NCBI GenBank assembly: GCA_965116015.1
Contig: OZ220477.1
Location: 1,165,704 to 1,229,703 of the forward strand
DNA length: 64,000 bases
DNA from: Dehalococcoidia bacterium
GTDB taxonomy: Bacteria > Chloroflexota > Dehalococcoidia > Lucifugimonadales > Australimonadaceae
Direction of reading: 5' to 3'
Under the pieces are notes generated by a model. It made no database searches. It had not been told where the DNA came from and saw only the letters and a list, made by a program, of their open reading frames with translations. Positions 12,365 to 46,199 of this stretch are shown here, one piece after another (within the stretch, counting starts at the first letter, position 1; each line of letters opens with the position of its first letter). The translations under genes were made by a program, and so were the position numbers.

Positions 12365-14083
12365 ATGCTCACCAGCATCGCCATCCGCAACTTCAAACAA
12401 TTCGACAACACAACCGTCGAACTCGCCAGCCCCGTCGTCTTCATCGGCCCCAACAACTCCGGCAAAACCTCCGCTATGCAAGCCCTCGCCCTCTGGAGCA
12501 TCGGCCTCAAACGATGGCTCGAACGCGGCGGCAAACGCCAGCGCGCCGTAACCATCAACCGCCAAGACCTCTTCGCCCTACCCGTCCCCCAAGCCAACCT
12601 CCTCTGGAGAAACCTCCACGTCCGCAACTCAGGAAAGAACGCCTACGGCAAACAGACAACCTCCAACGTCCTCATCCACATAACCGTAAACGGCGTAACC
12701 AACGGCCGAACCTGGTCCTCCCCCCTCGAATTCGACTACGCCAACCCCGAATCCCTCTACTGCCGGCCGCTCCGCCTCAACGGAACCCTCGCCAACATCC
12801 CCGACGAAGCCAAAAACCTCCACATCGCCTTCCTCCCGCCTATGTCCGGCCTCGCCGCCGCCGAAACCCGGCTGCCCCCAGGAGCCGTCAACGTCCGCAT
12901 CGGCGAAGGACGAACCGCCGAAGTCCTCCGAAACCTCTGCCACTCCATCTCCCGCCAGCAACCCGACCGCTGGAAACAACTCGTCCAGCACATACACAAC
13001 CAATTCGGCGCAACCATCGAAACACCGCGCGACGTCCCCGAACGCGGCGAAATCACAATGTCCTACACCGAACGCGACAACCGCTCCGGCAAAGACGTCC
13101 GCTTCGACCTCTCATCAAGCGGACGAGGTCTCCAGCAAACGCTCCTCCTCCTCGCATACCTCTACGCCAACGACGGCGCCGTCCTCCTCCTCGACGAACC
13201 CGACGCCCACCTCGAAATACCCCGCCAGCGCGAAACCTACCGCATGATCGCCAGCATAGCCGCCAGCGCGCACAACCAGTGCATCATCGCCAGCCACTCC
13301 GAAGTCATACTCGACGAAGCCGCCGAAAAAGACGTCGTCATCGCATTCGTCGGCAAACCCCACCGCATCGACAATCGCGGAAGCCAGCTCCGCAAATCCC
13401 TCCGCGACATCCCCTTCTCCCACTACTACCAAGCAGAGCAAACCGGATGGGCCCTCTACCTCGAAGGCTCCACAGACCTCGCCATCCTCCAAGCCTTCGC
13501 CGAACGCCTCCGCCACCAGCGCGCGATTCAAGCCCTCCAGCGACCCTTCGTCCACTACACAGGAAACCTCCCAGCCAAAGCCAGCGACCACTTCCACGGC
13601 CTCCGCGAAGCCTTCCCCCATCTCAAAGGACTCGCCCTCTTCGACCGCCTCGAACCCTCCCCCGCAAGCGACGGCCTCCGCATAATCACCTGGCGCCGGC
13701 GCGAAATCGAGAACTACCTCTGCTCGCAAGCAACGCTCGAAAACCTCGCCGCCGAATCCGCAGAACAAGACGAAATCGGCCTGTCCGTCGCCCCCGAAGC
13801 CGAACGACGGCTCGCAGCAATGCGCCAAGCCATCGACGAAGTCGCTCAAGCAATGACAACCCTCCGCAGAGGCTCCCCCTGGAGCCCCGACTGCAAAGCC
13901 AGCGACGACTTCCTCGCTCCCCTCTTCGAAACCTACTACTCCAACCTCAACCTCCCCAACCTCATGAACAAAAGCGCCTTCCACTCCCTCGTCCCCTACG
14001 TCCCCAACAACGAAATCGACCCCGAAATCTCCGCCAAACTCGACGCCATCGCAAACATCCACGAATCCGCCTCCCCCCACTAA
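12365..14083 (+). CDS. ABC-type (AAA_15/21-like) ATPase fused to a TOPRIM/DUF4435-like C-terminal domain (OLD/AbiL-like; candidate defence protein)
   Basis: Walker A GPNNSGKT, signature-like LSSSGRG, Walker B LLLDEPDAHL, H-loop ASHS. The C-terminal half has YLEGSTDLAIL (an E-G-x-x-D TOPRIM-like motif) and LALFDRLE. Confidence 0.65.
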   Translation: MLTSIAIRNFKQFDNTTVELASPVVFIGPNNSGKTSAMQALALWSIGLKRWLERGGKRQRAVTINRQDLFALPVPQANLLWRNLHVRNSGKNAYGKQTTSNVLIHITVNGVTNGRTWSSPLEFDYANPESLYCRPLRLNGTLANIPDEAKNLHIAFLPPMSGLAAAETRLPPGAVNVRIGEGRTAEVLRNLCHSISRQQPDRWKQLVQHIHNQFGATIETPRDVPERGEITMSYTERDNRSGKDVRFDLSSSGRGLQQTLLLLAYLYANDGAVLLLDEPDAHLEIPRQRETYRMIASIAASAHNQCIIASHSEVILDEAAEKDVVIAFVGKPHRIDNRGSQLRKSLRDIPFSHYYQAEQTGWALYLEGSTDLAILQAFAERLRHQRAIQALQRPFVHYTGNLPAKASDHFHGLREAFPHLKGLALFDRLEPSPASDGLRIITWRRREIENYLCSQATLENLAAESAEQDEIGLSVAPEAERRLAAMRQAIDEVAQAMTTLRRGSPWSPDCKASDDFLAPLFETYYSNLNLPNLMNKSAFHSLVPYVPNNEIDPEISAKLDAIANIHESASPH

Positions 14084-14106: not shown

Positions 14107-14255
14107 CATCGCTCCCCCGCAGGCGCGACGAACCTTTCCTTAGGCATGGGGATGAACCCGATACGGACACGGACACCGATACGGATACGGAAACCTTTCC
14201 TTAGGCATGGGGATGAACCTCCCATCCTCATCGCTCCCCGCAGGCGCGACGAACC
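14107..14255 (+). repeat. composite direct repeats X-Y-(GAYACS)5-Y-X
   Basis: X = catcgctcc(c)ccgcaggcgcgacgaacc at 14107-14134 and 14229-14255. Y = aacctttccttaggcatggggatgaacc at 14131-14158 and 14192-14219 (perfect, 28 bp). A hexamer tract (gatacg/gacacg) lies at 14159-14190. Confidence 0.9.
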
Positions 14256-14462
14256 CCTGGCCCTGTTCCAGCGCGTCGAACAAGCCCCGCCCGGTCCACG
14301 CCGACGCCCCCAACCTCACACGCCTCCTTATCGTCAAAACCACGACACTTACCCGTTGCGCAATAAGCGCTCTCGCCCCTACGCTATCACCTTGGGAAAC
14401 CGCCCCCCGAACGGGCAACCCGCCCCACCCCCGCCCCCGCAAACCCAAACCCAAGGAGGAGA

Positions 14463-14489
14463 ACGTTACGAAATGTTACAGAATGTTAC
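14463..14489 (+). promoter_or_regulatory. three 10-bp-phased (A)TGTTAC motifs overlapping the HTH gene start codon (candidate operator)
   Basis: aCGTTACgaaATGTTACagaATGTTACg. The same triple motif occurs in inverted orientation at 43184-43210. Confidence 0.5.
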
Positions 14490-14874
14490 GCCCGAACAAA
14501 CCAACTCCCTCTCCCCGCGACAAACCGCCGCGCTCCCCCACATCGCCTCAGAACCCACCCTCGCCGACGGCGCCCGCGCCGCCCGCATCGCCAGAATCAC
14601 CCTCAACCGATGGATGCGCGAACCCGCATTCCGAGCCGAACTCGAACGCATCCGCCAGAACATCGCCGACCTCGCCTTCACCGAGCTCCAAGCCGCTACC
14701 CTCAAAGCCGTCTTCCGCGTCGTCGAACTCCTCAACCACCCAGACCCCAACCTCAGACTCAAAGCCGCCAAAACCATCCTCTCAACCGCCATCGCCTCCC
14801 GCAGCGACAAAGACCTCTCCCTACGCCTCGACACCATCGACAACGCCCTCTCCCTCCTCAAAAACCAGCAATGA
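14473..14874 (+). CDS. small HTH protein (phage small-terminase-like / phBC6A51-type HTH)
   Basis: 133 aa. LSPRQTAALPHIASEPTLADGARAARIARITLNRWMREPAFRAEL fits the pattern of terS-type HTH domains. AAGGAGG lies 11-13 nt upstream. Confidence 0.55.
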   Translation: MLQNVTPEQTNSLSPRQTAALPHIASEPTLADGARAARIARITLNRWMREPAFRAELERIRQNIADLAFTELQAATLKAVFRVVELLNHPDPNLRLKAAKTILSTAIASRSDKDLSLRLDTIDNALSLLKNQQ

Positions 14875-31318: not shown

Positions 31319-32839
31319 ATGGCGGAACAGAACTTCCCTGACAACGTCCTTTACGAACTCGACAACCTCGACGTCCTCCGGGGAATGAACAGCGAAACAG
31401 TCGACCTCATCGCCACCGACCCGCCGTTCAACACCCAGCGCAACAGGTCGGGAACCGCAGGGTTCTACGTCGACAACTGGAAGTGGGGCGACACCGGCAT
31501 CCTCCCCGACCAGTGGGCATGGAACGAGGTGCACCCCGTTTGGCTCGAACAGATCAAAGACGACAAACCAGCCCTCTACGAGGTCATCGACGCCGCGCGA
31601 GCCTGCCACGGAGAAGACATCGCCGCCTTCCTCTGCTTCCTCAGCGTCCGCCTCCTGGAGATGCACCGTGTGCTCAAGCCTGCCGGCAGCATCTACCTCC
31701 ATTGCGACCACACCGCCAACGCCTACATCCGAATGGCGATGGACGCTGTATTCGGCCCCAAGAATTTCCGGAACGAAATCGTCTGGAACTACCGACGATG
31801 GCCCGCTAAGTCGCGCAATTTCCAGCGGATGCATGACACTATCTACTGGTATTCGAAAGGAACAGAGTGGACATGGAACCAGCAGTACGAAGCCTTAGCG
31901 CCTTCCACACTTAAGGCGGACGGGGGAAAGAAGATTCTCAACGTGTTCGATGAGCACGGCCATCGGGTTCGAGGCGTTAAAACCGGTGAAGACTCTCCCG
32001 GCGCGCTAATGCGTTCTGTTTGGGACATAGGCTTCATCTCTCCTACGGCAAAAGAGCGCACCGGCTCCCCTGACCAAAAACCGCTCGCGCTGTACGAGCG
32101 GATAATCCTAGCGAGCAGCAACCCGGGCGACCTCGTGCTAGACCCGTTCGCGGGATGTGCAACCACAATCATCGCGGCGCGGAAGCACGGCAGGCGATGG
32201 GTGGGCGTCGACCGCCGCAAAGACGCAAGGTTTCACGTCGTGATGCGCATGATGGACATCAAGGCCAAAGACGCCGAACAACTCCGCAAGGAGCGCCCCG
32301 ACCTCAGCGCCTGGCTGGATGATCAGCTCTCCCGCTACGACGCGCACTACGCCATCGAGCCGCCCGAGCGAACAGACAGCGGCGAGCACGCGGCTCCCGA
32401 ACTTGAGCAAGTGTTCTTCCCCATTCGCGGCGAGCGGCAGCCTTGGCAGCGCCTCGCCCACGCCGAAATGCAGGGCGTCCTCAACCGCGTGCAAGCCGCG
32501 AGCGACGGCGCGCAGACGATCTGCGCCGGCTGCGGGCGAGAGCTCGAATGGCAGTTTATGGAGCTCGACCACATCACCCCGAGAGCCGACGGCGGCGAGA
32601 ACTACATCACCAACCGGGTAATGCTCTGCCGCCCATGCAACGGGAAGAAGAAACACAATCTCACCCTCTCCGGCCTGCGCCGGCAGAACCGGCAAGACGG
32701 CTGGATGAAGGACGAGCCAAAGGCCCAGACCGTCCTGATGACCGTCCAACGGCAAACGCAGAAGATGCGCGACTCCTGGTCGAGCCCCGACGTGCAGGCG
32801 CTCATCCTCTCCGTGCGCAGCCAGCAGCCGCAGACATAG
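31319..32839 (+). CDS. beta-class N6/N4 DNA methyltransferase fused to a C-terminal HNH endonuclease domain
   Basis: Motif IV TDPPFN near the N-terminus and motif I DPFAGCATT later (beta-class order). The C-terminus has CAGCG...DHITPRADGG..NRVMLCRPCNGKK (HNH). Confidence 0.85.
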   Translation: MAEQNFPDNVLYELDNLDVLRGMNSETVDLIATDPPFNTQRNRSGTAGFYVDNWKWGDTGILPDQWAWNEVHPVWLEQIKDDKPALYEVIDAARACHGEDIAAFLCFLSVRLLEMHRVLKPAGSIYLHCDHTANAYIRMAMDAVFGPKNFRNEIVWNYRRWPAKSRNFQRMHDTIYWYSKGTEWTWNQQYEALAPSTLKADGGKKILNVFDEHGHRVRGVKTGEDSPGALMRSVWDIGFISPTAKERTGSPDQKPLALYERIILASSNPGDLVLDPFAGCATTIIAARKHGRRWVGVDRRKDARFHVVMRMMDIKAKDAEQLRKERPDLSAWLDDQLSRYDAHYAIEPPERTDSGEHAAPELEQVFFPIRGERQPWQRLAHAEMQGVLNRVQAASDGAQTICAGCGRELEWQFMELDHITPRADGGENYITNRVMLCRPCNGKKKHNLTLSGLRRQNRQDGWMKDEPKAQTVLMTVQRQTQKMRDSWSSPDVQALILSVRSQQPQT

Positions 32840-32851
32840 GCCCCGGATCCG

Positions 32852-34138
32852 CTACTCCTGCGCCTCCGGAGGCCTCGGCGAGCGCACGGCCAGAATCATC
32901 GCCGCCGACAGAATGAACGCTCCCGCAAACACCGTGAACGCCGCGTTATAGCTGCCCGTTGCGTCGCGGATAGCCCCCGCCGCCAGCGGCCCCACCGGAT
33001 TGATGAACGCCGTCATCAGCCCCATCTGCCCCCGGATCGCCCCCACCGACCGCCTCCCGAAATAGTTCGGCACAACAATCCGCTGGCTCACCGTCCACCC
33101 TCCCTGCGCAACCCCGAACGTCAGCCCGAAGAGAATCGAGCCCGCGAACGTCTCAGCATTGACGATGACAGCCATCGACAGGAAGTAGATGAGCGCCACC
33201 GACGCAATAACAAGCCTTATGTGGACGCGGTCCATAACCCATCCCCACGGCGCCGTCGTAATGGCCGAGGTCATCGCGAACGTGAACACAATGAGCACGG
33301 AACTCTCGAACTCCACCCCGCGCGACTGGAAGTGCGGCACAGCGTGCAGGTTCGTAGCCGTTTGGCCGAAGAACATCACCGACGTCGTGAGCAGGATGAG
33401 CCAGAACGCTGGCGTCCTGCGCGCCTGCCCCGCGCTCCACGCGAACTCGCTTGCCCCGGCGGCGCGTTCGCCTCCGGGCGCAGCGTCTAGAGCGTCGCCG
33501 TCGGGAACGAGCCCGTAGTCCTCCGGACGGCGACGCAAGTACACGAGCGCAGGAACGGTGATGAGCACGATGGCCGAGATCGCCAGCAACCCGTACGCCC
33601 ATCGCCAGCTGAGCAGCACAATCAGCGGCGCAACCGCCAGCGGCGTGAGCGCCTGCCCGAACCGGAGCCCGAACCCCGCCAGCGATGTGGCTCTTCCGCG
33701 CTTGCGGATGAACCAGTTCGCAATCGCGACAGTCGTCCCCAGCTGCACGCCGGCAATGGCGAACCCGCGCCCCGCGCCGAAGAATATCCACATCTGCCAC
33801 GGCGCTTGCATCAGCGCGAGGCCAACCATCGCCCCTGCCAGAGCCATTCCCGAGACCGCCGTAACAGTGCGCGTGCCGTAGCGATCCATCACGCGTCCCA
33901 TCGCCGCGGTCAGCACAGACCCGGTGAAACTGCCGACTGTGAACGCCGCCGCAACCTCCCAAGCCTTCCAGCCAGTCTCCTCCCGGATCGGCTCGAACCA
34001 CACGCTCAGGACAGGCCCGTAGAAAATGCACGACGCGAACGAAACAACGAGCGCCGTGGACGCGATCGCCCACCCGTAGTAGGCGTCGAACGGCCACAGC
34101 GAACCCGCCGGACTGCGGGCCCGCTGCGGAGCGCCCAT
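32852..34138 (-). CDS. MFS transporter (paralog of 22313..23683)
   Basis: About 12 hydrophobic segments, with the GRVMDRYGTR and NWFIRKRGRATS loops. Confidence 0.82.
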   Translation of the reverse strand: MGAPQRARSPAGSLWPFDAYYGWAIASTALVVSFASCIFYGPVLSVWFEPIREETGWKAWEVAAAFTVGSFTGSVLTAAMGRVMDRYGTRTVTAVSGMALAGAMVGLALMQAPWQMWIFFGAGRGFAIAGVQLGTTVAIANWFIRKRGRATSLAGFGLRFGQALTPLAVAPLIVLLSWRWAYGLLAISAIVLITVPALVYLRRRPEDYGLVPDGDALDAAPGGERAAGASEFAWSAGQARRTPAFWLILLTTSVMFFGQTATNLHAVPHFQSRGVEFESSVLIVFTFAMTSAITTAPWGWVMDRVHIRLVIASVALIYFLSMAVIVNAETFAGSILFGLTFGVAQGGWTVSQRIVVPNYFGRRSVGAIRGQMGLMTAFINPVGPLAAGAIRDATGSYNAAFTVFAGAFILSAAMILAVRSPRPPEAQE

Positions 34139-41816: not shown

Positions 41817-42995
41817 ATGACTCGTCCCCCTCGCGCCCGCGGCGCCGAAGCCGCGCTTTACGCGCAGACGACTGCCTACAGCCTGTCGCTCGGGGCGATT
41901 ATCGTCCTCGTTCCGCTCTACATCCTCTCTCTCGGCTACAACCCTGGATGGCTTGGGGTAATCATCGCCGGGCAGGGGCTCTTTCAGGTTGGGCTTCGCC
42001 TGTTCGGCGGGGTCTTCTCCGACAGGCTGGGCGAGAGCTGGGTTATCCAGGCGAGCTTCGCTATGCTCGTCGCCGGTTCGGTCGCGCTGGCGCTCTCGCC
42101 GTCGATTGTGTGGCTTGTCCTCACGCAGGCGCTGTTCGGAGGCTCGCGCGCCATCTACTGGACATCCGCGCAGTCGTACGGCAGCCGGATCGACGAAACG
42201 CGCCCCGCGCAGCTCATGGGGCGGTTCTTCGGGTTCGGGGCCGCAGGAGGGCTTCTCGGCAACGCCGGCGGCGGCATCGTCGCGGTGGCGTGGGGCTACC
42301 AACCCGGATTCCTGCTCATCGCCGGCGTCTCCGTTGCGGCGATGGTCGTCGTCGCTCTCATGCCGCAGCTTCCCCGGCGCGAGGCGCGGAGCGTTCGGGA
42401 GATTCTTGCGCCCGTGCCTGGGGTCTTCCGCAAGCGCGTCACCGTCCTGCCGGCCATCATGGGATTCGCCACGTCGTTGCAGGTTTCCGTTCTCGCCTCG
42501 GTGGGGGCGGCGCTCTACCAGGGATTCGGGTTCAGCGACGACGAGTTCGGGTTGCTGATGGCGGTTCACGGCGTCGGGGCTGTCCCTGCGGGGTTCGCCT
42601 TCGCCGGCATCCTGCGCATCGTCGGCGAACGCCCGGCCTACGCGCTCACGCTGGGCGTTCACGGCTTCCTGCTCGTTGGCGTCGTTGCGTGGGGAGATGT
42701 CTACTGGGCGGCGGCGGCGCTGATGTTCGTTCTTGGGTTCTCCTTCAACGCAGGGCGGGCGTTCAACACGAGCCTGACAGCGATGGCGAGCGCGCCGGAG
42801 CAGCGGGGCGTTTTCATGGCGGTAGTCGGCGTTTACTGGGCGTCGGGCCAGATGCTTGGGCCGCTTGTGTTCGGTCCGCTTGCCGCGGCGACCTCAGTTC
42901 CGGCGTCGATTGCCGTCGCCGGCGCGGCGATGCTGATTACCGCGGCGCTCACTCCGCTGCTCTACGCCCTGTTCGGCGCCCACCGCGACGGCTAA
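41817..42995 (+). CDS. MFS transporter
   Basis: About 12 hydrophobic segments, with a GGVFSDRLGE loop motif. Codons are G/T-ending, opposite to the left part of the window. Confidence 0.78.
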   Translation: MTRPPRARGAEAALYAQTTAYSLSLGAIIVLVPLYILSLGYNPGWLGVIIAGQGLFQVGLRLFGGVFSDRLGESWVIQASFAMLVAGSVALALSPSIVWLVLTQALFGGSRAIYWTSAQSYGSRIDETRPAQLMGRFFGFGAAGGLLGNAGGGIVAVAWGYQPGFLLIAGVSVAAMVVVALMPQLPRREARSVREILAPVPGVFRKRVTVLPAIMGFATSLQVSVLASVGAALYQGFGFSDDEFGLLMAVHGVGAVPAGFAFAGILRIVGERPAYALTLGVHGFLLVGVVAWGDVYWAAAALMFVLGFSFNAGRAFNTSLTAMASAPEQRGVFMAVVGVYWASGQMLGPLVFGPLAAATSVPASIAVAGAAMLITAALTPLLYALFGAHRDG

Positions 42996-43200
42996 CGCGC
43001 GCTCGCCGGAGCGCGTAATGCGATGCGGAGGGAGCGGGACGCGATGCCGGCTTGCCGCCGCTACGGTGCACGGCGATTCCATAACGGGAGGCGCTGCGAG
43101 CGGAGCCCGACGGCTCATGCCCATTGGCGTACGGCAATTCCTCGGAGAGAAGGGAGAGGGGGAATGGGAATTCTGTTGCAGGCGTAACATTTCGTAACAT
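42949..43200 (-). pseudogene. diverged/truncated homolog of the 14473 HTH gene
   Basis: Starts MLRNVTPA (compare MLQNVTPE at 14473), retains LS..LP....EP..GAR.A.R similarity, and runs into the convergent MFS gene end. Confidence 0.4.
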
Positions 43201-43210
43201 TAAGTAACAT
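43184..43210 (-). promoter_or_regulatory. three 10-bp-phased GTAACAT motifs (inverted copy of 14463-14489)
   Basis: GTAACAT at 43184, 43194 and 43204. Confidence 0.5.
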
Positions 43211-43551
43211 TCCCTTTGGGCCGAGGCGCTTCCCGGGAGAAGTTCGGGGCGGGGGGCTGAGTTGCCGCCAGGGCGATTCCCCGAGCGGACAGCTTAGGGG
43301 CGGGAGCGCATACCACGCAACGGGCGGATGCCAGCTTGCTCTCGCGGGCGCCGCGGACGCGCGGCGAGGAGCGGCTTGCGCATGAGCAGTGTTCTGGAGG
43401 GTTCCGTTTGATTGTAGATGGCTGAGATTCCATCCCCGTCACCTTTGATAGCAATCATCCAATGGATAGACGGCAAGCTCCTACCCCAATCAGGAGCTAA
43501 CAGCTGATAGGTGGTTCCTGATGGAATGATTAGCGAAAGGTATAATCCCTC

Positions 43552-43992
43552 TTAATAGCGGTCTTTGCCACTTGCGCCTGCACTGCGTTTACTGTATCCA
43601 TTATATAGCATGCCGATATCTATCCCACTGATTTGACCCAGCAATATTCCTAACGAGAAGAAAGCAAAATTATCCCAGAAAATTATCGACATCAATACCG
43701 TCATTGGAAGCAATACAAGCAAAGCTAAAACCCCATATCTCCGTTGTTTCTTTTCCCATTGGCTCCTCTGATCTCTCCACAACTGCAATATCCCTAGCAG
43801 CTCTCTTAGATATGTTTTCTCTCTGTATGGATGATACCAATCTATATAGATAGTTCTCCATAGCCTAAAGCATATCTGTATGGCAATCACTGCCACTCCT
43901 GAAATTATCAGTAGGTTAGTGCAAACGAGCATTGCATTGATAGTGCGTTTGATACGTTGCGTAACTGCACACTCCGTGATGTGAGATTTCAC
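43552..43992 (-). CDS. hypothetical 3-TM membrane protein in the low-GC island
   Basis: 146 aa with three hydrophobic segments. AT-rich codon usage is unlike the rest of the window. It lies 95 nt downstream of, and co-directional with, the MTase-HNH gene. Confidence 0.6.
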   Translation of the reverse strand: MKSHITECAVTQRIKRTINAMLVCTNLLIISGVAVIAIQICFRLWRTIYIDWYHPYREKTYLRELLGILQLWRDQRSQWEKKQRRYGVLALLVLLPMTVLMSIIFWDNFAFFSLGILLGQISGIDIGMLYNGYSKRSAGASGKDRY

Positions 43993-44046
43993 GCCATCAA
44001 GCTACCATAAACAGACAGTATTTGTCAATACCTTCCAAGTTTTAGG

Positions 44047-44064
44047 TTCCGTTTGCAAACGGAA
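44047..44064. repeat. perfect 18-bp palindrome TTCCGTTTGCAAACGGAA between the MTase-HNH and membrane-protein genes
   Basis: Read directly from the sequence. The half-site gttccgtttg recurs at 43401-43410. Confidence 0.9.
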
Positions 44065-44087
44065 TCTACTAGAGGGTGCGCTTTGCG

Positions 44088-45986
44088 CTATCCGAACCTG
44101 CCCTCGCGCTCGTACCAATCCCGCGTCCACGACGCGTTGATCATTCGTTCCTGTTTTATGCGCTCCCATCGCAGCTCAGCCAGGGTGAGTTTGTTGCCCT
44201 TCAAGCCATTGCATGGCGGACAGAGCAATACTCTGTTGCGTAATCCGTCATTTCCGCCTTTGGATTTAGGTTGCTTGTGGTCAACCTCAAGGTACTCGGA
44301 AAGTCCTTTCGGCGGGACATAGCCGCATCCCTGGCAGTAGCAGCCGTCGTCGACGCTTAGACGTTCACGTATTTCTCGCACGCTCATACGCTCGCTTTTT
44401 GGCTTAGGGCTCACTAGCACGAGCACTAGCTCCGGCGCCGCTTTCTCCCCGTCGTCAGTGCGCTTGGGCAGTTCAGATTTCACCGACACGGCTCTGTCCC
44501 ATGAGCTGGCTACGCTAGGCAGCTGCGCATGCTTCTGTAGTTGCCTCAGCATGACATCTTCCGCCTCTTTGTTAATGTCGATAGCTATCCACTCGCGCCC
44601 AAGCCGCTCAGCCCCAACGCAGGTAGTAGCGCACCCCGCGAATGGGTCTAGCACGATGTCGCCTTCGTTGCTGGATGCTTTGATGATGCGCTCGTACAGC
44701 GCAATTGGCTTTTGGGTTGGGTAGCCGGTGTACTCGCCAGCGCTAGCGTTGTAGTTGGTGAATCCTCGCGGCTCCAATATCAAGTTTTGCGGCAGGTTGC
44801 CGGTATCCGCCGCTGCGTAGCGTTTCAAACCAGGCCAGAAGCCTCTTGAGGGATGGACGACCAAGCCGGCATTATCGAGGGCGTCCAATCGTTCATGAAC
44901 GCCCGTCAACGATGTGTAGCCAGGAATGAATGTCCGCTCAATCCAGCGCGCGTAGTCAGATGATTTGGGAGGCGCCCAGCTTCTACCTCTAGCTGCGACA
45001 TCATACCCTTTCCAAGGCTGTCCTGATTCTCCAGTAGACGCGCTCGGCGCGGTCAGGTCGGAGAACCTGACCGCGCCGAGCGCGTCTAGTTGTGGGTAAG
45101 CAGTTTTGATCTCATCTTCAGTCTTGGGTGTGGCAACTGCATCGCCATTCCACGTGAATTTTTCAGATTTTGAGTAGTAGAGGATAGTGTCGGTGATATT
45201 GCCGTAGCCCTTTGCGTTGTTGTGGGCAGTGGCTCTGCGCCACGCAATCTGGCTTCTCATATTCCTCGGGCCGAAGATGGCGTCCATCATCGCGCGGATG
45301 TAGGAGTTAGCAGTATGGTCGCAGTGCAAGTAGAGGCTGCCTGCCGGCTTGAGGATGCGGCGCATCTCCAGGACGCGGACGCCCAGCCAGCACAGGAACG
45401 CGCCCATATCCTCGCCTGCGGCGGCGTTGGCGGCCTGTATGACGCTGTAGAGGTTCGGATGATCCTCTCGGATGCTCTCCGTCCACTCGGACTGGACATC
45501 CCCCCACGTCCATACGTCCGTGTAGCTGACCTTCTTTCCCGTTTTGTCGGCGCCGGCTGTGACAATGCCCTCGAACGCCTTCACGCCCTTGTTGAACGGA
45601 GGGTCGGTGGCGATGAGGTCGATGCTGTCTGAATTGATGCCCCGGAGTATCGGTAAGTTATCCCCGATGAATAGCGTACGGCTCTCAATGTTCAGGTTTG
45701 TAGTAGAATTGTTAGCCCGCTCGCCCGCTCGCCCGCTCGCCCGCTCGCCCGCTCGCCCGCTCGCCCGCTCGCCCGCTCGCCCGCTCGCCCGCTCGCCCGC
45801 TCGCCATCCTGCGCCTCCTTGCCTTATGAGCGCTTGGAACCCTACCACATAGGGGCATTGCCGACCGGAATCCTTGCCTTGATGCGACGCTAGAGTCAAT
45901 AGGCTTGTGTCGCGGGAGCGCGAACGGAGGGGACCCGCTGGCTCCCGCCTCCGGAGGAACGACGGCTCTTGTCGGTAGTCAGCCAT
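44088..45986 (-). CDS. beta-class N6/N4 DNA methyltransferase-HNH endonuclease fusion (paralog of 31319..32839) with a repeat-encoded N-terminal extension
   Basis: TDPPFN, DPFAGCATT, and the C-terminal CQGCG...DHKQPKSKGG..NRVLLCPPCNGLKGNK. The ORF is open to the ATG at 45986, passing through the (GERASGRA)n repeat. An alternative SD+ATG at 45807 is out of frame. Confidence 0.8.
   Translation of the reverse strand: MADYRQEPSFLRRREPAGPLRSRSRDTSLLTLASHQGKDSGRQCPYVVGFQALIRQGGAGWRAGERASGRAGERASGRAGERASGRAGERANNSTTNLNIESRTLFIGDNLPILRGINSDSIDLIATDPPFNKGVKAFEGIVTAGADKTGKKVSYTDVWTWGDVQSEWTESIREDHPNLYSVIQAANAAAGEDMGAFLCWLGVRVLEMRRILKPAGSLYLHCDHTANSYIRAMMDAIFGPRNMRSQIAWRRATAHNNAKGYGNITDTILYYSKSEKFTWNGDAVATPKTEDEIKTAYPQLDALGAVRFSDLTAPSASTGESGQPWKGYDVAARGRSWAPPKSSDYARWIERTFIPGYTSLTGVHERLDALDNAGLVVHPSRGFWPGLKRYAAADTGNLPQNLILEPRGFTNYNASAGEYTGYPTQKPIALYERIIKASSNEGDIVLDPFAGCATTCVGAERLGREWIAIDINKEAEDVMLRQLQKHAQLPSVASSWDRAVSVKSELPKRTDDGEKAAPELVLVLVSPKPKSERMSVREIRERLSVDDGCYCQGCGYVPPKGLSEYLEVDHKQPKSKGGNDGLRNRVLLCPPCNGLKGNKLTLAELRWERIKQERMINASWTRDWYEREGRFG
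45715..45802 (-). repeat. octanucleotide tandem repeat (GCCCGCTC)x11 inside the 5' end of the MTase-HNH ORF
   Basis: Eleven perfect 8-bp units were counted, 88 bp in total. Confidence 0.95.
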
Positions 45987-46039
45987 CGTCCTGCTCCACG
46001 CCGCACCGCGCGTGCGCGCCTTGTTCGCTCTTGGGCGGC

Positions 46040-46160
46040 TCTGCTAGAATCGGGGCCTGCGCCGACATCTACCGGGAGCTGGGTGAAACCCGGCTGAGAG
46101 GCTCCGCAGCTACGGGGCGACCGGCAACCTGATCTGGGTAATGCCAGCGGAGGGAATCTG
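46040..46160 (+). promoter_or_regulatory. TPP (THI-box) riboswitch
   Basis: Conserved cugaga (46094-46099) and accugaucugg(g)uaaugccagcg (46127-46149). Located upstream of thiG. Confidence 0.85.
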
Positions 46161-46199
46161 CAAAGACCGCTCCTCCGCCGAAAGCAGGGCGGTCTTTTT
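46161..46199 (+). terminator. intrinsic terminator forming the riboswitch expression platform
   Basis: 9-bp stem aaagaccgc/gcggtcttt, followed by and overlapping a T5 run. Confidence 0.7.

Follow-up and report, generated by a model that had tools for sequence, protein, structure and literature searches.

Restriction-modification enzymes provide several described systems with which the locus considered here can be compared. In Type IIG enzymes a PD-(D/E)XK nuclease at the N-terminus is combined with a gamma-class methylase. In the characterised systems that combine a beta-class methylase with an HNH nuclease these are separate proteins, and HNH figures in reviews solely as a stand-alone restriction endonuclease or within modification-dependent fusions. 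The phase-variable mod alleles of Type III systems, which are partnered by a res gene, have conserved 5′ and 3′ ends, a central target-recognition region that varies between paralogues, and in their 5′ coding region a non-triplet repeat with a unit of usually 1–5 nucleotides (nt); several independently repeat-bearing copies may occur in one genome, and their hosts are host-adapted pathogens. Campylobacter jejuni cj0031 is a phase-variable, single-polypeptide Type IIG restriction-modification enzyme (Anjum et al., 2016, cited in PMC13076061), and its expression is governed by an intragenic simple repeat. The tract of cj0031 is poly-G. Here we describe a methylase-HNH gene that lies on an insertion of about 3 kb in the genome of what appears, from the labels of the genomes that match best, to be an uncultured Chloroflexota/Dehalococcoidia-like organism (contig OZ220477.1, forward-strand positions 1,165,704 to 1,229,703; this whole stretch of 64,000 nt is referred to as the window, and coordinates are counted from its first letter). 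With a little more than even confidence, we read the locus as a single-chain enzyme of restriction-modification type, encoded by an acquired and solitary gene, in which an octanucleotide contingency repeat controls translation: its start codon is placed directly on a slippery 8-base repeat, through which the gene is probably switched on and off.

The locus shares several features with the mod alleles. The methylase is predicted to have a beta-class, Mod-like fold, for which the top matches in PDB were EcoP15I Mod and other Mod subunits (4zcf, 6k0w, 7dsu), the gene has conserved ends and a central region that differs between paralogues, a non-triplet repeat is found in its 5′ coding region, and more than one copy in the genome appears to bear a repeat of its own. 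Unlike mod/res, however, the locus has neither a res gene nor a conserved partner, and the C-terminus of the methylase bears the nuclease as a fused HNH domain; the repeat unit is 8 nt in length, the switching is predicted from the sequence, and the host does not appear to be a host-adapted pathogen. With cj0031 the locus shares the union of methylase and nuclease in one polypeptide and the presence of an intragenic simple repeat, although that repeat is an octanucleotide and not poly-G, and the order of domains, with a beta-class methylase first and then a C-terminal HNH, differs from that of Type IIG enzymes. As a repeat-switched single chain, cj0031 may nevertheless serve as a precedent for our reading. 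The methylase core also resembles, in sequence and in fold, the beta-class Type II enzymes M.RsrI, M.MboIIA, CcrM and M.BceJIV, and the nuclease resembles the HNH endonucleases KpnI, MnlI, Hpy99I and PacI in its beta-beta-alpha-metal motif with CxxC...CxxC, but here the two are joined. We regard the locus as probably of the phase-variable restriction-modification methylase type, in an unusual architecture and an unusual lineage.

The most informative feature of the locus is the octamer repeat (Table 1), which the initial annotation of the window had used only as a landmark for a change in GC content. It was the only perfect multi-copy non-triplet repeat that Tandem Repeats Finder (TRF) detected in the window. 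The G of the ATG at 45807 is the first base of the array (coding strand ...CATAAGGCAAGGAGGCGCAGGATGGCGAGCGGGCGAGCGG...), and the AAGGAGG that precedes this ATG is present at only 10 sites in the 128 kb of strand, at just three of which a start codon follows at 4–9 nt. From this ATG the reading frame passes through the array and stops right after it, giving a product of 31 amino acids (aa), and the frame of the methylase is offset from it by one. When other array lengths were simulated, n+1 and n−2 units gave methylase-HNH proteins of 575 and 567 aa, respectively, from ATG 45807; at the assembled length n the upstream ATG 45986 was the only one in frame, and it yields the 632-aa product found in the database; and at n−1 or n+2 units neither ATG was in frame. 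The stretch from the array to the conserved N-terminus lacks any ATG, GTG or TTG, and it is here that over 100 of the 120 closest homologues have their start ('M..LNVxxRTLFIxDNLP', 30–34 residues before DPPF). Held against the operational criteria for potentially phase-variable methylase genes (Atack et al., 2018/2019; PMC5909438, PMC7383803), the tract has at least three units, a unit that is not a multiple of three, and a position inside the open reading frame (ORF).

In the 632-aa ORF as annotated, 270 nt at the 5′ end are probably not native coding sequence. ATG 45986 lies only ~20–30 nt inside the border of the insertion and 79 nt from a divergent thiamine pyrophosphate (TPP) aptamer, and therefore its promoter would lie in host DNA. 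Its GGAG is spaced like those of some resident genes, which is why we retain it as a candidate secondary start. On the coding strand the array reads (GGGCGAGC)n, so that GGG runs with 5-nt loops recur about 11 times directly after the proposed start codon; this G-quadruplex-type pattern could affect translation or the instability of the tract.

How would such a gene be switched? We propose that the functional cargo of the insertion is one gene, encoding a single-polypeptide restriction-modification-type enzyme in which a Type III Mod-like beta-class amino-methyltransferase would have its separate restriction subunit replaced by the C-terminal HNH. Slipped-strand gain or loss of 8-nt units in the (GCGAGCGG)n tract after ATG 45807 would change the reading frame. 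With n+1 or n−2 units the strong start would be joined to the methylase-HNH frame and the gene would be ON; with the tract as assembled, translation from the strong start would end after 31 codons and the weaker ATG 45986 alone would be in frame, a state that would be OFF or low; and with n−1 or n+2 units, neither start being in frame, the gene would be OFF. The expected outcome would be a population that is mixed for one methylation/restriction specificity.

The source genome has three methylase-HNH copies, and a second one of these also appears to be slippery. The third copy, P0007, is encoded on the same contig as the window (2,388,059 bp), and its N-terminus reads ...RR(TQRNA)x5 ELYHNLNVESRTLFIGDNLP..., at the same position as the octamer repeat; the codons CAA, CGC, AAC, GCA and ACG all fit (CAACG)n read in frame. 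Judged from these sequences, two of the three copies would each, independently, have gained a slippery tract that shifts the frame, both in the one position, and would no longer have the start codon usual for the family; without selection for switching, such a coincidence is hard to account for. P0007 would then be switched by a repeat of its own, independently of the octamer-bearing copy. Among ~147 homologous loci, taken from other genomes and from metagenomes, none was found to have a non-triplet repeat at the 5′ end. The remaining copy, at 31319..32839, has a normal start and no repeat. It adjoins a gene for an MFS transporter (32852..34138), and the copy on the insertion likewise adjoins an MFS gene.

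The initial annotation had identified the gene as a methyltransferase-HNH fusion, and our analyses confirmed this: both Pfam domains were detected and both sets of catalytic motifs are intact. In alignments of 51 and 117 members of the family, DPPF, the S-adenosylmethionine motif FAGCATT (DPFAGCATT; FxGCxTT) and the HNH residues were invariant or nearly so, while a stretch from residue ~180 to ~330, the target-recognition region, was hypervariable. The HNH residues C460, G462, C463, D478, H479, N493, C498 and N502 (541-aa numbering) were invariant in the 51 sequences. As is diagnostic of the beta class, the DPPY/F motif IV is N-terminal to motif I (the S-adenosylmethionine site, of FxGxG type) and the target-recognition region lies between them; and DH ... 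N ... N/H within a CxxC...CxxC frame corresponds to a beta-beta-alpha-metal HNH for which catalysis is predicted. Conserved catalytic centres, a hypervariable target-recognition region and a solitary gene make up, at the level of sequence, the usual signature of restriction-modification specificity. An alignment-based AlphaFold model returned a single chain (predicted local distance difference test, pLDDT, 86.5; predicted template modelling score, pTM, 0.73), whose PDB matches after the Mod subunits were the beta-class methylases M.BceJIV, CcrM, RsrI and MboIIA; no solved chain that joins a beta-class methylase to an HNH was found among them. Methylase and endonuclease domains are present in one chain, as in Type IIC/IIG enzymes, but the build is not the canonical Type IIG one (Eco57I/MmeI-like), and a domain scan of the ORF found no match to Eco57I, MmeI or N6_Mtase (PF02384). 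Nor is the locus of Type III in the strict sense, as there is no res gene (superfamily 2 helicase-nuclease) on the insertion, nor one as a conserved neighbour in 82 loci. Our literature search for methylase-HNH fusions found no paper naming this architecture. GC content at third codon positions (GC3) is mosaic along the gene, at 0.74–0.84 in the conserved N-terminal third, 0.56–0.57 in the target-recognition region and 0.60–0.68 in the C-terminal part, a pattern that fits recombinational exchange of the target-recognition and 3′ segments between paralogues.

The fusion itself is common: at least 7,903 proteins match at E ≤ 1e-10, and almost none of them are named. Both domains were present in 118 of the 120 best matches, and we ruled out a different nuclease in P0087, P0105 and P0115, in which HNH is present at a weaker score. 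The 80 best loci in species-representative genomes are overwhelmingly from metagenome-assembled genomes (MAGs) labelled Dehalococcoidia, Phototrophicaceae, Anaerolineae or Chloroflexota, often with two or three copies on one chromosome. When neighbouring ORFs of 82 loci were clustered, no family was common to more than eight loci, and the shared families consisted of housekeeping genes of related genomes. The methylase-HNH genes are solitary, without a conserved neighbour, and often multi-copy, and most are 3–6 GC points below their flanks. The window had no synteny with the other methylase-HNH loci, and we found no conserved insertion site. Mobile replicons of cultured organisms almost lack the fusion: matches covering at least 80% of the protein were found in none of 72,556 plasmids and in two of 50,697 phage records, and the full-length fusion in three of the 2.9 million contigs of IMG/VR. 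The protein from the insertion is the single member of its cluster, and in the metagenomes of the Joint Genome Institute (JGI) its best relatives were only 40–50% identical, with no close one. Some members of the family (loci L053, L054, L055, L031 and L077, and protein P0038) are beside or fused to an IS1595-type transposase (Zn-ribbon and DDE), which suggests transposon-borne spread for a part of the family; in L053–L055 (7407–8378; two MAGs) the query match has equal length and identity and is followed by a transposase-like ORF of the same size. We tentatively propose, while thinking it rather less than an even chance, that the family is an uncharacterised single-chain class, Mod-like with HNH in place of Res and both abundant and multi-copy in Chloroflexota, of which at least two copies in this genome have independent start-codon repeats, one of 8 nt and one probably of 5 nt.

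A major question arising from these observations is "Could the repeat be something other than a switch?" It may be a neutral or recent expansion in a gene that is translated from ATG 45986 as a protein of 632 aa whose N-terminal extension is of low complexity, or the gene may be decaying after the loss of its native start. The frame is indeed open from 45986 in the assembly, with GGAG at −10, the gene caller gave the 632-aa product, and by our own calculation a 60-codon stop-free stretch at 65% GC has a chance probability of ~0.2. We nevertheless regard the absence of a programmed switch as unlikely, because ATG 45986 is so near the border that no promoter would fit inside the element, a much stronger ribosome-binding site and ATG are placed exactly at the repeat, and the two paralogues have different non-triplet repeats at a position where none of the ~147 other loci has one. 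Decay, moreover, sits poorly with catalytic motifs that are intact. Is the fusion, alternatively, not a restriction enzyme, but either a selfish mobile gene whose HNH serves its own spread by homing or insertion, or an orphan regulatory methylase with an HNH of some other role, so that the repeat switches an epigenetic regulator (a phasevarion) and not a defence? Genes of this family are solitary, multi-copy and scattered among housekeeping genes, usually with the GC deficit described above, some of them adjoin or are fused to IS1595-type transposases, this insertion has no mobility gene, and phase-variable Mod enzymes have mostly been described as regulators. However, strict methylase motifs combined with a hypervariable target-recognition region are the pattern of restriction-modification specificity diversification, we found neither target-site repeats nor a conserved insertion site, and phages and plasmids almost never contain the fusion, so that we consider this explanation quite improbable.

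Our preferred reading, a restriction-modification-type enzyme switched by its repeat, is itself opposed by several points. As assembled, the methylase frame is open from ATG 45986, and the enzyme may be expressed with a repetitive N-terminal extension. Variation in tract length is something we infer from frame arithmetic on one assembly, and the ~15 pentanucleotide units (CAACG) of P0007 were deduced from its protein. The repeat-bearing copies are confined to the source genome, and family-wide comparative support is therefore lacking. In the PADLOC check that the initial annotation had proposed (PADLOC-DB v2), the methylase-HNH matched only the generic models MTase_II, MTase_III and oMTase, no system-specific protein model matched at the locus, and the neighbouring membrane ORF matched nothing. 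Finally, the nuclease and methylase activities, the target and the defence phenotype are all predictions, as is the restriction of unmethylated DNA by the HNH.

That the gene was acquired could be established more firmly. Via orthologues of the flanking MFS protein (77–84% identity) we traced three contigs from relatives (L150, L151 and L152), in each of which the order is HAD hydrolase, Zn-ribbon, MFS, ~250 nt with a TPP leader, thiG-thiE-thiS and EamA. As the MFS gene is ~250 nt from thiG in all three, ~42,985–46,005 is a true insertion of 3.0 kb. In BLASTN and MAFFT alignments homology on the left stops at ~42,978–42,987, which are the last MFS codons, and restarts on the right at ~46,006–46,017, just 5′ of the conserved promoter-like 'TGCTAGA(C/A)T' of thiG; the distance between the homology ends is 70–90 nt in the relatives versus ~3,020 nt in the window. 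This comparison agrees with the placement given by the initial annotation, between an MFS gene and the thi leader. The inserted segment has four parts, a GC-rich piece of 450 nt, an AT-rich ORFan, the methylase-HNH gene and ~200 nt of upstream DNA, and is a horizontally acquired, compositionally foreign insertion. In 300-nt windows GC is 0.64–0.70 up to 43.25 kb, has its minimum (0.44/0.41/0.42/0.47) across 43.40–44.15 kb and then climbs gradually, to 0.51–0.58 up to 45.2 kb and 0.62–0.66 beyond. Consequently the sharp drop reported at ~43.44 kb is real (0.41–0.47 at 43.40–44.15 kb against a flank of 0.64–0.70), but the recovery that had been placed at the octamer repeat is not, the rise being gradual and complete before the repeat; likewise, the island was rightly seen as foreign but is larger than the low-GC stretch with which it had been equated. 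GC3 is 0.79–0.84 in four resident genes versus 0.68 in the methylase-HNH gene and 0.435 in the ORFan.

Two marks of a genomic island, an empty site in relatives and deviant composition, are present here, while a mobility gene, a tRNA target and flanking repeats are not: the ORF list contains no integrase or transposase on the inserted segment, the nearest tRNAs are 4 kb off, and alignment scores gave no direct or inverted repeats or target duplication at the junctions above random expectation. Insertion of restriction-modification gene units that lack mobility genes has been described (Furuta et al., 2010; PMC2853133), and the present insertion resembles those units in being a small, lower-GC restriction-modification unit between conserved genes, devoid of integrase and transposase and seen by empty-site comparison. 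It differs from them in that its junctions lack both inverted repeats and a long target duplication, and in also containing an ORFan and a GC-rich repeat block. The TPP aptamer beyond its right border is conserved in the three relatives, and its score is below the Rfam gathering threshold; a default scan missed it.

Table 1. Positions of the features of the methylase-HNH locus and its surroundings in the 64,000-nt window
Feature	Position	Strand	Remarks
Second copy of the GTAACATT block	14352-14500	-	Between ATPase gene and tRNA-His
Second methylase-HNH paralogue, 506 aa	31319..32839	+	43% identical; PF01555 and PF01844; normal start, no repeat
MFS gene	41817..42995		Left flank of insertion
Inserted segment, ~3.0 kb	42985..46005	none	Empty site in three related genomes
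GC-rich block	43165..43330	+	Three GTAACATT repeats at 10-nt spacing and conserved 3′ part; inside the 3-kb insertion
146-aa ORFan	43552..43992	-	GTG start, alternative ATG at codon 21; GC 0.41, GC3 0.435
Spacer between 146-aa ORF and methylase-HNH	43993-44087		95 nt
Perfect palindrome TTCCGTTTGCAAACGGAA, 18 nt	44047-44064		23 nt past the methylase stop codon; 0 expected by chance
Annotated methylase-HNH ORF, 632 aa	44088..45986	-	PF01555 N6_N4_Mtase 1.2e-41; PF01844 HNH 4.5e-10
Conserved body of methylase-HNH, 541 aa + stop	44088..45713	-	DPPF, FAGCATT, variable central target-recognition region, then HNH
HNH nuclease domain (CxGC ... DH ... N ... LLCxPCN)	44190..44336	-	PF01844; residues 551-599 of 632-aa ORF
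Perfect tandem repeat (GCGAGCGG)x11.4	45715..45805	-	5′ coding region; TRF: period 8, 100% matches
Proposed native start	45805..45820	-	Shine-Dalgarno AAGGAGG 45814-45820, 6-nt spacer, ATG 45805-45807
Upstream ATG, GGAG at -10	45984..45986	-	In frame at assembled tract length; possible secondary start
TPP aptamer (thi-box)	46065-46172	+	46.9 bits, E = 2.7e-7; Rfam gathering score 54.3
Terminator hairpin and T-run after TPP aptamer	46175-46192	+
thiG	starts 46221		Downstream of the terminator of the TPP aptamer

The initial annotation had put forward a different explanation for the insertion, namely that the methylase-HNH and the 146-aa protein encoded next to it form a two-gene defence or abortive-infection module, a sensor or modifier paired with a membrane effector. 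The arrangement on which that idea was built is as described: both ORFs are on the minus strand and are separated by a 95-nt spacer that contains a perfect palindrome. They are on one insertion, and the smaller ORF is longer than chance allows, as its 149-codon stop-free run was reached in four of 2,000 dinucleotide-preserving shuffles of the low-GC stretch. The description of its product as a three-transmembrane protein was partly sustained, for it is an AT-rich ORF with two strong hydrophobic segments, but the third segment is weaker. We also found a small multi-transmembrane ORF just downstream of the methylase-HNH gene in two of 80 other loci (L031 and L075), although neither is homologous to the 146-aa ORF.

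Against these points stands the absence of any homologue of the 146-aa ORF: none was found in 5.8 billion protein clusters (word-indexed search), among 1.84 billion representatives (full phmmer), in 50,697 phage and 72,556 plasmid records (six-frame tblastn), in IMG/VR, or in the 149 loci compared. The lack of a recognisable motif noted in the initial annotation was reproduced, with no family match in Pfam, PADLOC, NCBIfam or PHROGs (best PHROG E = 0.31), and a single-sequence AlphaFold model was of low confidence (pLDDT 68, pTM 0.29) and too poor for a fold search. No Shine-Dalgarno precedes either of its candidate starts, and the methylase-HNH genes have no conserved neighbour. Since it has no homologue in any search, the 146-aa ORF never co-occurs with methylase-HNH genes elsewhere; this is the outcome that the initial annotation had itself named as refuting the module when it proposed the check. 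The difference in GC3 (0.435 versus 0.68) argues for different origins and separate histories of the two genes. Conserved co-occurrence of two families is what would define a two-gene module, and we did not find it; taken together, the missing homologues, the lack of a shared neighbour and the mismatch in GC3 make such a module very improbable indeed. An ORFan that adjoins a defence-type gene on an island is no evidence for a system, and for the two-gene idea the value of this case is negative. Because the GC3 gap argues that the genes have no long common history, we treat the 146-aa ORF as a passenger of the insertion. It is probably either a real gene or what is left of one in recent decay, and it would be unrelated to the enzyme and of different origin. 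We considered the palindrome in the spacer as an intrinsic terminator and rejected this: it is not a canonical one because no T-run follows it, its fold z-score is −1.24, and no terminator was called at the site.

The GC-rich piece at the other side of the ORFan contains a block that is present twice in the window. The initial annotation had pointed to a conserved block next to the island that is shared with the locus of an OLD-like ATPase, and this sharing was upheld by comparison of the two copies, which are ~170 nt in length with 78% column identity. The conserved 3′ part reads 'GGGCG.TT.CCC.AG...TAGGGGCG.GAGCGC.TA...CGCAACGGG'. The triple GTAACATT motif is found at two places in the window versus 0 expected, in none of 152 other loci compared, and the block has no match in Rfam. 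The ATPase beside the second copy is a solitary AAA_15/AAA_21 protein (12365..14083; NsnB/AriA/GajA/Old-like in PADLOC). The block may mark the end of a cassette or a site of recombination; alternatively, it may be a regulatory element associated with acquired defence genes. Located 3′ of the second copy (14140–14260, minus strand) is a duplicated element of ~60 nt, '...ttcatccccatgcctaaggaaaggtt...', in two copies ~60 nt apart, which together with an 18-nt tandem repeat at 14154–14195 makes up non-coding, repeat-rich DNA adjoining tRNA-His.

The relatives also have a variable slot at the equivalent of ~40.7 kb, between ABC ATPase and HAD genes and ~2 kb from the insertion, which is empty in the window. 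Its cargo is a SNF2 helicase pair in L150 (3571–6025), a 1115-aa Type ISP/IIG-like restriction-modification enzyme in L151 (2974–6321), and BrxC/BrxD-like genes with IS21 in L152 (186–6249). This slot is a second variable hotspot, with a different defence or mobile cargo in each relative.

The concept of the contingency locus was built almost entirely on pathogens with small genomes. If the octamer repeat does switch the methylase-HNH enzyme, contingency-locus control of DNA methylation and restriction would reach a lineage of Chloroflexota that is uncultured and either environmental or symbiotic, and also a single-chain architecture of beta-class methylase and HNH of which we found no characterised member. 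As the case shows, a gene caller can hide a switch of this type when it places the start of the ORF at an ATG farther upstream. The methylase-HNH family has thousands of unnamed members, and consequently one biochemical characterisation would annotate very many genes. For the organism itself, the repeats would mean that an uncultured Dehalococcoidia-like bacterium has a repertoire of restriction or epigenetic states that switch at random, and the repeat-bearing genes would be, as far as the literature that we searched shows, the first phasevarion-type contingency loci in Chloroflexota.

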